Of a DNA stretch of 64,000 bases, positions 38,173 to 42,847 are shown one piece after another. The number at the start of each line of letters is the position of its first letter. The first letter of the stretch is position 1. This DNA is from Phycisphaerae bacterium (GTDB lineage: Bacteria; Planctomycetota; Phycisphaerae; UBA1845; Fen-1342): positions 64,001 to 128,000 of the forward strand of contig JASFQK010000010.1 of NCBI GenBank assembly GCA_050115495.1, given 5' to 3'. The position numbers and the translations under genes are program-made. The notes beneath the pieces were generated by a model. The model had not been told where the DNA came from and searched no databases. It saw only the letters and a list, made by a program, of their open reading frames with translations.

Positions 38173-38601
38173 ATGCGGTTCGACATCAACAGAGTGGACG
38201 TGTGGGCGGGAGAGGTTCCGGACCGGCGTGGTTCGCTGGCCAATACGCTCCGCGCGCTATTCGACGCGGGGGCCGACCTGGACTTCATCATGGGCCGGCC
38301 GTCGCCGGTGAAGCCGAATACGGGCATCCTCTATGTCGCTCCGGTTGAGGGCGAGGCACAGGTGCAGGCGGCGGCCGCGGCGGGGCTGGTGCCTTCGGGG
38401 TTGGTGCCGGCCCTGCGGATCGGCGGACCGGACGAGCGGGGTCTGGCCGAGCGGATCGCCCGGGCGCTGTCCGACGCGGGTATCAATATCGCGGCCTGGA
38501 TGGCCGGACGCATGGCCGACCGCTGCGTGATGCACCTGCGGTTCGAGCGGGACGAAGACCTGACGAGGGCGGAAGAGGTGCTGAAGGAGGTGTTGAAATA
38601 A
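38173..38601 (+). CDS. ACT domain-containing protein (copy 1)
   Basis: DRRGSLA...GADLDF and DERGLA..IARALSDAGINI tandem ACT motifs. Confidence 0.85.
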   Translation: MRFDINRVDVWAGEVPDRRGSLANTLRALFDAGADLDFIMGRPSPVKPNTGILYVAPVEGEAQVQAAAAAGLVPSGLVPALRIGGPDERGLAERIARALSDAGINIAAWMAGRMADRCVMHLRFERDEDLTRAEEVLKEVLK

Positions 38602-38697
38602 GCGGCGCGCCGTCGGGCGGCGGGCACGACGGCGGCAACGGGTGACAGAGCTGGCCATGCCGGGGCCTGCGTCCCGGCGTCAATCGTGGGGCGAGCG

Positions 38698-39123
38698 ATG
38701 GCATTTGAGATTACCAAGGTCGAAGTCTGGGAGGGGCGGGTTATCGATCGACCGGGGGCGTTGTCCGAGCAACTGGCGGAAGTGATGCGGGCCGGGGCGA
38801 ACCTCGACATGATCATGGCGCGCCCCTGTCCGCTGCGTCCGGACGAGTGCACGCTGGTCCTGGGTCCGCTGCACGGCGAGGCTCAGACCACCGCCGCCGA
38901 ACAGGCGGACCTGCACCGGTCCGGCGAGCATTGGCTGCGGCTGGAGGGTCCGGACCGGCCCTGGCTGGCGGCGGGCATCTCGCGGACGGTGGCCGACAGC
39001 GGCGTGAACATCAAGTCGATGACCGGCACGGTTCTCGGTGACCGTTGCGTGGTGTACATCTCGTTCGCGACCGAAGCCGACGCCCGCCGGGCGGCGCAGG
39101 TGCTGACGCCGGTTTTGGGCTGA
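38698..39123 (+). CDS. ACT domain-containing protein (copy 2)
   Basis: DRPGALS...GANLDM and DRPWLA...VADSGVNI; collinear with copy 1. Confidence 0.85.
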   Translation: MAFEITKVEVWEGRVIDRPGALSEQLAEVMRAGANLDMIMARPCPLRPDECTLVLGPLHGEAQTTAAEQADLHRSGEHWLRLEGPDRPWLAAGISRTVADSGVNIKSMTGTVLGDRCVVYISFATEADARRAAQVLTPVLG

Positions 39124-39145
39124 TGGACGCGTCGGGCGAGCAGGG

Positions 39146-39192
39146 CAGGTAGGGCAGGCCCTGCCCGCCAATATCGGCGGAACCTACCTGCT
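39146..39192. repeat. GTAG-type REP-like nested palindrome
   Basis: GCAGGTAGG...CCTACCTGC inverted repeat enclosing GGGCAGGCCCTGCCC; lies between convergent genes. Confidence 0.55.
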
Positions 39193-39252
39193 GACCGCCG
39201 TGGCCCGCCCCGCATCTTCTGGTGGGTATCGCGTGGCACCCGCCTGTCTTGC

Positions 39253-39525
39253 CTACCCTCTGCGGCTCTTCCGCGGCGCACGCGGTCGTGAGGCTTGCTT
39301 CTCCAGAGCAGCCTTTACCATATCAGGGGGCTCCTCAATCGTTGCATAGCCTTCGGCAATGGCTTGTGCCCAGGCCCGGTAGAGACGCTTCGTTTCATCA
39401 TCCGCGTTGAAGTACCATATCAGGCCGCTTGTGCAGGCCAATTGCTTGTGGCCGTGCTCCTCCTGCATGAAGCGCTCTCGCACTACCTCGGGCACCTGCG
39501 AGTTGAACTTAGCGAACCTAGCCAT
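39253..39525 (-). CDS. Small hypothetical protein, possibly ribbon-helix-helix-like, with basic tail
   Basis: 90 aa. N-terminal strand-helix-helix pattern (KFNSQV/PEVVRERF/KQLACTSGLIWYF); ends RPRAPRKSRRG. Confidence 0.6.
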   Translation of the reverse strand: MARFAKFNSQVPEVVRERFMQEEHGHKQLACTSGLIWYFNADDETKRLYRAWAQAIAEGYATIEEPPDMVKAALEKQASRPRAPRKSRRG

Positions 39526-39596: not shown

Positions 39597-39625
39597 TTGA
39601 CAACAACCTGGATAGCCCGTATGTT
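39597..39625 (+). promoter_or_regulatory. Sigma70-type promoter P1
   Basis: TTGACA (39597-39602), 17-bp spacer, TATGTT (39620-39625); A-rich UP-like tract upstream. Confidence 0.7.
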
Positions 39626-39734: not shown

Positions 39735-39998
39735 CTACTCCCTCTGCGTGTGCTTGCGTTTCCCCCTGCGCTTGGGCGGATCGGGCACGATCTCAAGGAA
39801 ATCCTGAATGGGAACCTGCAAGGCGAGACAGAGCTTCTCCACGTTCGCCAGAGTCGGGTGATAGTTCTCGCGCGTTGCGATCGACTGAAGCGTGCCAACT
39901 GCCAAGCCTGTCACACGGGCAAGATCCTCATACGTGATGCGCCTGCCAGTTCGACGCCGGTATGCCAACATCGCCTCTCTGAGCTTGACGATCACCAT
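39735..39998 (-). CDS. XRE/Cro-C1 family helix-turn-helix regulator
   Basis: ITYEDLARVTGLAVGTLQSIAT...PTLANVEKLCLALQVPIQDFLE. Confidence 0.9.
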   Translation of the reverse strand: MVIVKLREAMLAYRRRTGRRITYEDLARVTGLAVGTLQSIATRENYHPTLANVEKLCLALQVPIQDFLEIVPDPPKRRGKRKHTQRE

Positions 39999-40046: not shown

Positions 40047-40075
40047 TTGGCAGTCCCGACGCTGCAGGTTATACT
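40047..40075 (+). promoter_or_regulatory. Sigma70-type promoter P2, divergent from the XRE gene
   Basis: TTGGCA (40047-40052), 17-bp spacer, TATACT (40070-40075). Confidence 0.75.
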
Positions 40076-40081
40076 ACCATA

Positions 40082-40471
40082 CGTGTCGATAATTGGGTAG
40101 TGCACGGCTGCATGAGCAACGGCCGTGCCCGGATCTTCATTACGATGATGTCGTGACCTTTGGGCTGTCAATGCAACGCGTCATGCGCGTTGTGCCAGTC
40201 TGGTCATGACAGCCTCGCCCGGGCGAGTGTCCGCGCTTATCATGCGGGCGCTGCCCGGTGCGCGGGGTCGCGGAGACTGGCTTGACGGCCCAACCGCGGC
40301 CTTCAGCGCATCGGGTGGCGCCCGTTTCCTTTAGGTGCCATCGGCTCTCGACGTTTCGCTGTCCCCCGACGGCGCCGTCACCCCTGCGCGAATGTACGCG
40401 GGTCGTGCGCGCCAATTGCGAGTCTGTCCGAGCGCACCCAGCAGGCACGGCCCGCTCTACACGCCGACACG
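40082..40471 (+). ncRNA. Candidate large structured non-coding RNA or leader of unrecognised class
   Basis: Starts at the expected TSS of P2. Its 5' and 3' ends pair (CGTGTCG/CGACACG), and about ten internal helices can be read directly, including long-range ones. No credible ORF. Confidence 0.55.
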
Positions 40472-40495: not shown

Positions 40496-40861
40496 ATGGC
40501 AAAATCGCCGGAGCTGGACGAAGACACGTTTCAGGCCATGTGGAAGACCTTGCCGCTTAGCGACAAACGCTTCCTCGGTGCGTTGATCCTCATTACAGAG
40601 GCCGTCGGGGATGAGAAGCTGCGTTACCACGAATTGCCCGCCCGCCTGGAACACACGCTACGGGAAGCCGATCGCGACACACTCTTCAGCCTTATCGCCG
40701 AGTGTCTCGGCCACTTGCTCAACGCCCCGGCGATGGAACGCGTCAGGCGATGTCACCGCCGCGGGCGAAGCGCGCGGCTCGCGTCCAAACAGAATCAGAC
40801 GCGCGAGCCCAGACCGAACGGGGACGGCCGGCCCCCGGCCCGGGGGAGGCGACCAGGATGA
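40496..40861 (+). CDS. Hypothetical protein with Arg-rich C-terminal tail
   Basis: AAGGAAGGA RBS precedes ATG 40496; helical core; ATGA overlap with the next gene. Confidence 0.7.
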   Translation: MAKSPELDEDTFQAMWKTLPLSDKRFLGALILITEAVGDEKLRYHELPARLEHTLREADRDTLFSLIAECLGHLLNAPAMERVRRCHRRGRSARLASKQNQTREPRPNGDGRPPARGRRPG

Positions 40862-41619
40862 ACGCGCGTGGCACAGAACATGTCACGTTTGCTGAGCCTC
40901 CCGTTGGGCGGGCTGTGCCTGCCGGTAGTGACACGCCGGAAGCGGCCGAGTCGGCGGGCGCGGCCGACCCCGCATTGGCCATGTCGCACAACGCATGCCA
41001 ACCACGCCCGTTCGCCCTGACGGCCTTGCTCCGCGACCTCCAGCCGCATCCCGAACTCGACCTGCGGACGATGGCCTATCACCTCCAGCAATCCGACGCC
41101 ACCGCCGGCGACGGCTACGGTCACGCCGCCATCAACGAGGCCCGCTCCGCCCTCGAGGCCCTCATCGTCAGCATCGCCTGCACCATCCGCCACGGCGCGA
41201 CGGATGGAACAGATACGCCCTTGCGCGAACGCGTCCAGAACGGCAGCACGTTCCGCACACATCGCCGCTGCCTGATGGACGCCGGCTTCATTGACGCCGA
41301 CGAGAGTGACTTGCTCCAATTCGTCTACAGCATGGCTAGCGCCAGAGGCAGCCATTACGGCGTGACCGACGAAGCCTGGACCCGCTTAGCTCGGCGAATC
41401 ATCTTCGCCGTCGGCCAATACTTCACGCTGCGCTACGCCACGTGGAAGCGGAATGGCCGCCAACCGGCACCACCCGCTGTCAGTTGCCGTCAGCCAACGC
41501 CACGCTCCTGGCTCCCGAGTCTCCTCGCCAACCTCCTGCCCTGGCGGAGGGATACCCCAACCCGCCCCTCTTCCATCAGGACGCCGACACGCCGCAAGCC
41601 CACGGATGGACACAAGTAG
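40858..41619 (+). CDS. Hypothetical helical protein, HEPN/Abi-C-like
   Basis: AINEARSALEAL...VYSMASARGSH...A pattern; coupled to the upstream ORF. Confidence 0.55.
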   Translation: MNARGTEHVTFAEPPVGRAVPAGSDTPEAAESAGAADPALAMSHNACQPRPFALTALLRDLQPHPELDLRTMAYHLQQSDATAGDGYGHAAINEARSALEALIVSIACTIRHGATDGTDTPLRERVQNGSTFRTHRRCLMDAGFIDADESDLLQFVYSMASARGSHYGVTDEAWTRLARRIIFAVGQYFTLRYATWKRNGRQPAPPAVSCRQPTPRSWLPSLLANLLPWRRDTPTRPSSIRTPTRRKPTDGHK

Positions 41620-42847
41620 GACTGGCCGTGCCCGCCCCACTTCTGTGGCTGGTGGGTCCGGACCGGCCATGTTCGCTTTGCCGCAGGTGCTTCTGCACGT
41701 ACTCGATCAACTTGCCGGCGGTTTCGTCGCAGGCTTTCGCGGCCTCTGGAGTGCCGCAGTTGGTGGCGACTAGAACGGCGAAGTCACGCTTCGGGGCCAG
41801 CCAGGCGACGGCGTACCAATACGTGTTGCTGCCGGCGTGCGTGAGGGCGGTGCCGCCGGCCCAGGGACGCTCGACCACGCCCCAGCCCAGGGCATAGTCG
41901 AAGCCGGGAGGTGGACGGTGCAGCGTGGTGATGGTCTCTGCCTTCAGCAGGCCCGATTCGCCGCGGGCGCCACGCAGATGCAACGCAGCGAAACGTGCCC
42001 AGTCGCCCAGCGAGCAATGCACCGTGCCGGCGGGGCCGAGACACGCCGGATTGTCGGACAAAGCCAGCGGCTCCAACGGCAGGAGCTCCTCGCCGACGAG
42101 GCGGTGCCCGCGCGGCTGGTCGGGTTCGAGTGGCGTGCCCGGTGGGCCGAAGCCGGCGGTGTCCATCTTCAGCGGCGTGAAGAGCAGGTCGCGCATCAGC
42201 TCTTCCCAGGAGCGGCCGGTGACACGCTCGGCCATCGCGCCGGCGACGGCGTAGCCCATGTTCGAGTAGATCATCTTCGAGCCGGGTTGCGCCGCCGGCT
42301 CCTGGCCGAGGGCGAGTCGGACAAGTGTCTCCCGCTGCTGGCGGATGGGGCCGTCGAGCGTGCGGAGACGCATGAACACCGGGCCGGGTACGCGATCCTC
42401 GGGCAGGCCGCTGCGATGCGTCAGGAGTTGCTCGATCGTGACGGCGTGATATTCGGGGCGAATCTCGCCTTTCAGGTCGGGGAACACGTCGGCGACCGTC
42501 GTGTCCCAGCGGAGCTGGCCCTGCTCGACGAGGCGGCCGATCAGTGTCGCGGTCATGGCCTTGGTGCAGGAGCCGATGTGGAAGCGGTCGTTCGGCGTAA
42601 CCAGCGTCGTGTCGCCCATGCAGCGCACGCCGGTGGCGCCGAGGGCGACCAAGTCGTCACCGCGGATGATGGTCCCCGCCAGTGCGGGCAGGTTGTGTTG
42701 GGCGCGGATGGGCTCGAGCAGCTCGGCCAGGTCGCGCACGGGTTGCGTCGTCGGCGGAGGCTCAGCCCAGGCCCACGCCGCGGCGAGCAGCACCAAGATG
42801 GCGGTCGCCGCGGCGTGGGCCGGCGCGTGTCGGGTTGAGCGGTTCAT
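41576..42847 (-). CDS. Serine hydrolase, beta-lactamase/AmpC-like family
   Basis: FHIGSCTK (SxxK), LLTHRSGL, YSN, HAGSN; signal peptide. Confidence 0.93.
   Translation of the reverse strand: MNRSTRHAPAHAAATAILVLLAAAWAWAEPPPTTQPVRDLAELLEPIRAQHNLPALAGTIIRGDDLVALGATGVRCMGDTTLVTPNDRFHIGSCTKAMTATLIGRLVEQGQLRWDTTVADVFPDLKGEIRPEYHAVTIEQLLTHRSGLPEDRVPGPVFMRLRTLDGPIRQQRETLVRLALGQEPAAQPGSKMIYSNMGYAVAGAMAERVTGRSWEELMRDLLFTPLKMDTAGFGPPGTPLEPDQPRGHRLVGEELLPLEPLALSDNPACLGPAGTVHCSLGDWARFAALHLRGARGESGLLKAETITTLHRPPPGFDYALGWGVVERPWAGGTALTHAGSNTYWYAVAWLAPKRDFAVLVATNCGTPEAAKACDETAGKLIEYVQKHLRQSEHGRSGPTSHRSGAGTASPTCVHPWACGVSAS

Follow-up and report, generated by a model that had tools for sequence, protein, structure and literature searches.

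A structured RNA family from small dispersed bacterial cassettes and its possible role as a copy-coded, self-antisense attenuator

Introduction

The locus described here poses the question of what a strongly structured tract (40082-40471, plus strand), situated between a divergent regulator gene and two downstream genes, might do for the cassette that carries it. The first-pass annotation of the window (the whole stretch of DNA analysed, 64,000 nt in length) had described this tract as an end-closed, possibly pseudoknotted RNA of about 390 nt and of unrecognised class behind a strong promoter, and had suggested a switching RNA such as a regulatory leader, an antitoxin RNA or an RNP scaffold. 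A structured, switching RNA outside Rfam, possibly a regulatory leader, is supported by the computed folds, by covariation and by the lack of Rfam matches, and the family to which it belongs is real, new and strongly supported. The conserved unit is a core of about 185 nt (40150-40332), in which helix P1, enclosing segment B, a variable hairpin and segment A, is followed by a linker, a middle segment, hairpin Y with the A'B' loop and a U-tract.

The cassette and its parts

The features of the window's cassette and its left neighbourhood are given below in order of position.

39253..39525, minus strand: small divergent gene, 90 aa, of the second regulator family of the cassette; homologues replace the XRE gene in other copies
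39597..39625, plus strand: second sigma70-type promoter, 10/12 consensus matches
39735..39998, minus strand: XRE/Cro-C1 HTH regulator, divergent from the RNA (PF13443, E 1.2e-10)
40047..40075, plus strand: main sigma70-type promoter, TTGGCA-17-TATACT; predicted start near 40082
40082..40149, plus strand: copy-specific 5' leader with local hairpins, not conserved (copy comparison)
40150..40210, plus strand: target domain, with P1 (40150-58/40202-10) enclosing B (40160-71), the variable hairpin P2 (40173-93) and A (40194-201)
40213..40267, plus strand: hairpin X, predicted antiterminator, which sequesters 40244-40267 (pairing and fold simulation)
40215..40243, plus strand: candidate internal promoter, with a weak -35 (40215-20), a 17-nt spacer and TATCAT (40238-43) in the X loop; predicted start near 40250
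40244..40325, plus strand: hairpin Y (20 + 9 bp), predicted intrinsic terminator stem (pairing across copies)
40273..40294, plus strand: recognition loop, with A' (40274-81, copy-specific) and B' (40282-93; a conserved core with the YUNR motif, then a copy-specific tail), identified by covariation and YUNR
40325..40332, plus strand: U-rich tract after Y, T-rich in most copies
40496..40861, plus strand: orfA, 121 aa, short form of a cassette-specific helical family (family alignment)
40858..41619, plus strand: orfB, HEPN-fold by structure match and motif, Abi_C-related, with the conserved His and without the usual catalytic Arg
41616..41641, plus strand: GTAG-type REP-like palindrome over the orfB stop, the right end of the cassette in its own genome (repeat search)

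The main promoter is one of two such sites in 4 kb (0.5 expected), and ends 6 nt upstream of the tract. The second promoter is probably the relic of a tandem cassette that has lost its RNA, and tandem arrangements are also found at C51 and C42 of the window's own genome (G000). The protein encoded at 39253..39525, which we take by eye to be ribbon-helix-helix-like, gave no Pfam match, and no PDB entry matched it below E 0.02. Two tandem ACT-domain genes (38173-39123) adjoin the cassette on its left, and relatives have one or several of them. In sequencing run X1, one contig spans 40243-41190 with 11 differing letters and 3 gaps, the listed ones lying in the loop; it appears to join the loop of another copy to the downstream DNA of the window, and the join between the window's RNA and orfA is thus without independent confirmation.

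Structure of the tract and its conserved core

The helices proposed in the first-pass annotation are largely sound: 13 of the 14 that were checked pair fully, when G-U pairs are allowed, at the positions given for them. The long hairpin reaches only 16/21 pairs in the ungapped register proposed for it, because a 2-nt bulge breaks that register, and is continuous, with helices of 20 and 9 bp, in the predicted fold. The folding energy of 40082-40471 is -204.9 kcal/mol (z -5.20), which was equalled by none of 100 shuffled sequences, against z -3.10 for the minus strand of the same tract; the core (40147-40333) folds at z -6.24, with 0/200 shuffles as good. Rfam models left the tract unmatched (best E 3.6 inside it), and across 12 loci of the family gave only sub-threshold matches to the long hairpin.

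The notion of a 390-nt unit closed at its ends had to be given up. Only the part of about 185 nt is conserved, the closing helix (40082-88/40465-71) is copy-specific, and its cognate and non-cognate pairings are alike in energy (-7.3 vs -7.2 kcal/mol, 44 copies). Copies differ from one another in the 5' leader and throughout the region that lies beyond about 40345 on the 3' side. The segment 40444-40460 looks like a GTAG-type repeat of the own genome in reverse complement. The recurrence of CATG, which had also been remarked upon, amounts to four occurrences in the tract with no sign of any role. The earlier description did not include hairpin X, the internal -10 box or the U-tract that follows the long hairpin, and it mentioned none of the 14 further copies.

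Copies and distribution of the RNA family

The own genome holds up to 15 copies, about 80% alike over the core and many of them at contig ends. Together with other Phycisphaerae-type genomes and metagenomes, it provided the 50 copies used for folding (50 of 51 given loci were parsed; the truncated C51:698 copy, L034, L036, L095 and L105 lie outside this set). A pattern scan of genome contigs gave 10 further loci, namely eight labelled Phycisphaeraceae (one set), one labelled Phycisphaerae and one labelled Dehalococcoidia. The 33 loci reached via the downstream gene comprise 17 with a full copy, 2 with a partial one and 14 with none in the available DNA, which is short for several of the 14. 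By covariance model, the RNA is present in 4/150 genomes of the order (own included), with 13 matches in genome G400, and in 1/150 genomes of the phylum (own genome included); 10 diverged G400 copies that had no part in building the model keep the architecture. A DNA search of 40 relatives, six of them of the same genus, found no copy, and collections of phage, plasmid and viral sequences gave no match. Being rare between genomes and numerous within them, the RNA would seem to belong to a mobile or selfish unit.

The host group, as inferred from the labels of matching sequences, is Phycisphaerae-type. The literature searched, which mostly comprised papers available without subscription, contained no prior description of this RNA family and almost no described regulatory RNAs from Phycisphaerae-type bacteria, to which a well-supported structured RNA family is hereby added.

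Several individual observations accompany this survey. At L019, a typical cassette lies on a 10-kb contig of a Dehalococcoidia-labelled, non-planctomycete bin, by mis-binning or transfer. Over 40202-40355 of the core, the contig depths add up to 679 in run X1, where unique parts have about 22, and to 1000 in run X4, where they have about 5; such depth is not a copy number, and indicates that the communities hold many copies. Two cassettes stand in tandem at L010 (G000:C51:116-2802), where the first RNA copy is not followed by orfA and lacks the linker and the 5' arm of X (compare L022), apparently because sequence between short repeats was deleted. Stand-alone X-like hairpins occur between the RNA and orfA at L044:265-334, L049:687-753 and L050:1505-1561 and 1692-1757, and in all four the -10-like box carries an A to G change.

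Covariation and the copy-specific code

The complementarity between the loop of the long hairpin and two upstream segments, first noticed in the window alone, proved to be real and is the most strongly covarying feature of the family; the covariation that had been called for in homologous loci was found, and is strongest for this A:A'/B:B' pairing. In an alignment of P1, B:B', X and Y (21 of the 25 copies then known), two-sided changes affect 6/6 pairs of P1 and 10/12 pairs of B:B', and 98.5% of cells pair, a score reached by 0/500 shuffles, the structure being derived from the same sequences and kin not being independent. The stem that closes the recognition loop covaries as well.

Furthermore, the pairing distinguishes one copy from another. 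Across 18 code groups (37 copies, out of 41 matches of which 2 were unparsed and 2 dropped as cut or misparsed), cognate pairing scored 7.1 vs 4.3 for A:A' and 4.6 vs 2.7 for the B tail, with 0/5000 permutations as high in either case. The own target is the best fit for the loop in 21/25 copies, and the best among co-resident copies in 8/8, 10/10 and 11/14. Clear exceptions are L002 (G000:C42:899-1122) and L013 (G000:C32:1-196), which lie near contig ends, combine the loop of one code with the target of another and prefer the terminator fold; the A segment of L002 is that of the window copy, and both are recombinants or assembly chimeras. With these two left out, near-identical codes were shared by 0/139 within-genome pairs vs 53/989 between-genome pairs (p about 0.04, rising to 0.08 and 0.16 when the cut-off is relaxed, the pairs not being independent), and this lack of sharing within genomes is a modest hint of exclusion.

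Two mutually exclusive predicted folds

The segment 40244-40267 is shared between two hairpins, as it can pair upstream to give X or downstream to give the 29-bp Y. Paired cells amount to 98-99% for X, with a two-sided change in 1/20 pairs, and to 99.3% for Y, in which 17/29 pairs are invariant and 4 have two-sided changes; since X and the lower part of Y are nearly invariant, covariation barely tests them. In the diverged G400 copies, X carries compatible changes (read by eye).

When the transcript of the window copy is folded as it grows, it passes from P1 to X and then, at 3' ends 40295-40305, to X with A:A' and B:B' and P1 open; at equilibrium from 3' end 40326 it adopts Y with P1. In simulations of the 50 copies, a transcript ending just after B' is dominated by the read-through fold in 49 and has X formed in all 50. 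At the end of Y, equilibrium favours read-through in 18 and Y in 31, the window copy among those preferring Y, and when B is kept unpaired Y wins in 47. By forced-state energy the two folds lie close together, the difference averaging -1.3 kcal/mol over 37 copies, and at least 6 T follow within 9 nt of Y in 45/50 copies. As the full leader prefers Y at equilibrium in 31/50 copies even without an RNA acting in trans, read-through needs kinetic trapping. These models make it quite likely that the core is a two-state transcription attenuator.

The pseudoknot of the first-pass annotation is thereby partly retained: the loop pairing is real, and two alternative nested folds, or a kissing contact, fit better than a static pseudoknot, because the loop pairing is nested in the read-through fold, where it replaces helix P1.

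A proposed self-antisense mechanism and the case for a loop RNA

The reading to which we lean, with little better than even confidence, is that of a copy-coded self-antisense attenuator, a same-strand RNA within the leader of these small, dispersed cassettes (regulator <- promoter -> RNA -> orfA -> orfB), in which each copy's short RNA probably stops transcription of its own two downstream genes and of no other's. According to the computed steps, nascent P1 would fold and display A and B, and X would then hide the 5' arm of the terminator; the emerging A'B' would pair with A and B in cis and lock X, Y would come too late, and orfA-orfB would be transcribed. Repression would require a short hairpin-Y RNA, either started at the internal promoter or cut from terminated leaders, which would show A'B' in a U-turn loop and bind A/B in trans; the nascent A'B' would then be left free, Y would replace X and transcription would stop at the U-tract. 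As A and the B tail differ between copies, each copy would repress only itself and many cassettes could coexist, so that a newcomer would express orfA-orfB in a burst if its code were unused and would be silenced if a resident already had that code. The two genes most likely encode, if on slender indications, a toxic, addiction or defence-type effector.

The YUNR motif, the covarying loop-closing stem, the exposed B and the box in the X loop point to an RNA input in trans. YUNR, which is tied to first contacts between RNAs in the accessible text of PMC2943612, is present in B' of 43/50 copies. Together with the covarying stem, it would make sense only if the closed hairpin starts the contact, because the cis path needs neither; there, A'B' pairs before the loop closes. 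Opening B in the nascent target costs 3.3 kcal/mol vs 11.9 for control windows, and B is more accessible than 98% of these, that of the window copy being partly occluded. Accessibility-corrected binding at B (L002, L013 and L073 left out) is -6.5 for cognate pairs, with 35/47 below -5, and -0.1 for non-cognate pairs, with 9% below -5; for the window copy the estimate is only -3.0. Nested co-folding of the same set, a method which cannot represent loop-loop contacts, gave no net binding (cognate -1.1 vs -1.0), and the two kinds of estimate are in conflict. A loop RNA acting in trans is, on this evidence, slightly favoured.

A possible source of such an RNA lies within the core itself. The X loop carries a TAnnnT box in 47/50 copies, at a fixed distance from an invariant hexamer 17 nt upstream; its T, A and T (positions 1, 2 and 6) are conserved in 39, 37 and 38 of 40, with the middle and flanks variable. 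This pattern is suggestive of an internal promoter from which a small RNA with the loop would arise, and a start near 40250 would yield a hairpin RNA with A'B' and without A or B. The -35 hexamer is weak (rank 352 of 4096 by a genome-derived matrix) and has lost its first T in two G400 copies; the stem of the RNA would end 5 nt before the U-tract, and the RNA may terminate poorly and need trimming. We regard the internal promoter as a possible source of the loop RNA, at somewhat less than even confidence.

The same folds would also serve an attenuator acting purely in cis, with a protein, a ligand or polymerase pausing as its input and with TAnnnT as a protein-binding loop; A/A' and B/B' would then drift with compensation, varying because each has a single partner. 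All computed folding results fit this account, as do the lack of trans binding in nested co-folding and the weakness of the internal -35, and a protein input could come from the divergent regulators and orfA. It leaves unexplained, however, why a YUNR core is conserved in a closed loop, why the box has a -10-like conservation profile at fixed spacing, why the target is exposed in P1 and why codes are not shared within genomes, and we hold it to be rather unlikely. The fullest form of the self-antisense reading, in which the 185-nt module would encode target, antiterminator, terminator and its own repressor RNA from the X-loop promoter, and in which about 13 variable bases would act as an identity code giving 10-15 co-resident, transposase-free mobile cassettes private control and superinfection-type exclusion, is proposed tentatively, with confidence well short of even. 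Since promoter and terminator are of the sigma70 and intrinsic types, the switch is cheaply testable in vitro or in a reporter.

Comparison with known systems

The attenuator is best read, by analogy, as working like the immunity systems of phages P4 (CI) and P1 (C4) while being a member of neither. As far as the accessible text of these sources goes, the CI RNA of P4 derives from the same transcript and brings about termination by pairing with seqA and seqC (PMC4825925), and the a' segment gives C4 its specificity, multi-copy chromosomal C4-like RNAs with variable a' being known from Acinetobacter (PMC5320573). The likenesses of P4 seqA-CI-seqC and P1/P7 a1b1-C4-a2b2 (RF01695; also N15) to the present family are a regulator RNA and target on one leader strand, an upstream target, variable and conserved recognition parts, and premature termination as the outcome, again from the accessible portions of PMC4825925, PMC3632133 and PMC5320573. 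The c4-a1b1 RNA described with PMC2864571 may be relevant to a remote homology with the target domain. In C4, a' and b' lie in separate loops of a three-stem fold (accessible text of PMC5320573), whereas A' and B' are adjacent here in one loop of a 29-bp terminator-like hairpin. P4 and P1 have a second target downstream (seqC, a2b2); here none was found, the own loop ranking 2 to 15 of 15 against downstream DNA of the same copy (13 copies for which sufficient sequence was available). C4 and CI arise by RNase P processing, whereas the present family has a candidate internal promoter and, in addition, the dedicated antiterminator X. Finally, the phage systems serve phage or satellite immunity, whereas no phage or satellite genes were seen in the neighbourhoods of the cassettes and the phage, plasmid and viral sets gave no match; C4/CI covariance models had no match at E <= 10 in the window, nor at E <= 1 in 12 loci.

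The regulator of pT181 is an opposite-strand antisense RNA of a plasmid replicon; here, in contrast, no conserved opposite-strand promoter was found among the 50 copies, the best sites matching 4-8 of 12 positions and none at least 9 (promoters of non-sigma70 type lie outside this scoring). Likeness is found in the leader, which in pT181 has a mutually exclusive antiterminator and intrinsic terminator, as computed here, and is switched off by a kissing RNA (accessible part of PMC4878617). Unlike in pT181, the recognition loop here caps the terminator itself, and its intramolecular partner would be the same sequence as the proposed regulator. Mutation of pT181 yielded only two orthogonal variants, according to the same partial source (PMC4878617). 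The present family, with at least 18 code groups, amounts to a naturally occurring library of attenuators that appear to be orthogonal.

Gifsy-1 IsrK resembles the proposed scheme in that a single locus yields a short and a long RNA, of which the former acts on the latter in trans and tunes a toxic gene (PMC4825925, accessible text); IsrK activates translation, whereas repression by termination is predicted here, and there is no Rfam or sequence likeness. Its example raises the converse polarity, in which a short A/B RNA would bind nascent A'B', keep X and activate read-through as positive feedback. The same complementarity would serve, Y is the equilibrium fold in the majority of copies given above (31/50), and the short isoform of IsrK activates its long isoform in trans (same portion of PMC4825925); against this, no terminator or start site was seen that would free an A/B RNA, and the candidate internal promoter would give an A'B' RNA instead, which leaves this polarity very unlikely. 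The Sib/Ibs type I systems of Escherichia coli share with the present family several chromosomal paralogues told apart by two variable segments and a YUNR loop (PMC2943612, in its accessible part). Sib RNAs, however, are cis-encoded and complementary along the mRNA of a small toxin, whereas recognition here involves 20 nt of the same strand, attenuation and genes of 120-250 aa.

If the self-antisense model is true, RNA immunity in the style of P4 and P1 would reach beyond phages to small chromosomal cassettes of different architecture, and an RNA code would let many selfish modules share one cell.

Cassette genes and the antitoxin alternative

A divergent small regulator accompanies 43/46 copies with enough upstream DNA, and a promoter with at least 9/12 consensus matches lies upstream of 40/49. 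OrfA follows in 37/38 copies with enough downstream DNA and orfB in 23/26, being absent from two G400 copies. OrfA proteins align as one helical family with long and short forms, and gave no Pfam, PADLOC, Atlas, Foldseek or VIA match above Z 5.4. OrfB, as modelled, has a HEPN helical bundle fold: its best structural match is the HEPN protein 2hsb (Z 9.9, below the level advised for helical bundles; 118 aligned positions at rmsd 4.3), HEPN and related domains make up most of the 20 highest-ranking matches, and Atlas Abi_C clusters (0.89-0.90) give independent support. The usual catalytic motif of HEPN proteins is RxxxxH; in the OrfB family the His is invariant, and Ser/Ala/Val-type residues stand where the Arg is expected. 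OrfB is thus like Abi_C (PF14355) and HEPN proteins in its helical fold and conserved His, and unlike them in its replaced Arg and in the lack of a Pfam match, which extended to 25 relatives. Relatives P0077-P0197 reach to proteins of 250-320 aa that have additional N-terminal sequence and share the Arg-less HEPN motif.

A HEPN-fold OrfB recalls type III toxin-antitoxin systems, in which the antitoxin RNA consists of tandem repeats. The RNA could accordingly be a stable, terminated transcript of about 250 nt, a compact pseudoknot in which P1, Y and kissing A:A'/B:B' coexist and which serves as antitoxin or scaffold for OrfB; P1, Y and B:B' all covary or stay paired, and a strong promoter and a terminator would bound such an RNA. 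Hairpin X would then have no explanation, however, the usual Arg is missing from OrfB, no tandem array of the type III kind is present in the RNA, and OrfB is conserved while the RNA code varies. Moreover, the RNA occurs without orfB, and regulator, promoter, orfA and orfB occur without the RNA module at L122:6983-8648 (G253) and L121:410-2251 (G161), which indicates that the RNA is a separable control module and not an obligatory antitoxin. The antitoxin and scaffold roles named in the first-pass annotation survive as minor rivals, and we consider this one unlikely.

Spread of the cassettes and their neighbourhoods

The spread of a cassette without a mobility gene is the second question raised by these results, as no integrase, transposase, recombinase or replication gene was seen among the cassette genes. 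The structure might act as single-stranded DNA or as a guide for cassette movement, in the manner of a bridge RNA or of a HUH transposase substrate. The 15 dispersed copies of a cassette without integrase or transposase, the REP-like ends and six Y1_Tnp matches in the own genome would suit such a role. The many conserved G-U pairs and the better folding of the plus strand speak against it, the REP ends are not general, and comparison of the loop with flanking DNA within 3 kb gave no copy-specific match beyond chance 8-12-mers; we regard it as most improbable, and retain the self-antisense attenuator as the preferred reading. In IS110 bridge RNAs, variable loop segments match donor or target DNA and a recombinase gene lies alongside; membership of this class found no support, as neither a loop match within 3 kb beyond chance nor a cassette recombinase was found.

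In the own genome, 14 of the 15 listed orfB-family stops are TAG, most of them then followed by the GTAG-type repeat, against 1515 TAG stops among 4201 genes genome-wide. As a general mobility signal the REP ends were rejected, since only 4/19 orfB-family ends in other genomes are TAG. Contigs from four DNA sequencing runs held no joint across the cassette. In G001 and G003, unrelated genes and no cassette come after the orthologues of the upstream ACT gene; downstream synteny is lost there, and no clean empty site was obtained.

GTAG-type REP-like repeats lie at 39125-39250, 40444-40460 and 41616-41641 of the window, and three motifs of this type were counted 87, 191 and 100 times in the own genome at up to 3 mismatches. 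At L005:827-1718 and L008:882-1795, repeats that score above the Rfam gathering threshold for Acido-Lenti-1, and are REP-type in look, adjoin the regulator gene. The flanks of C1, C21, C43, C56 and C73 of G000 carry what we take, by eye, to be DUF4062-, AbiTii- or endonuclease-TPR-like proteins. Defence genes adjoin the cassettes at L022:3811-5515, L108:10133-11983 and L045:1343-1975, with DarT-DarG at L022, an OLD nuclease at L108 and, further, PDC-M19A.
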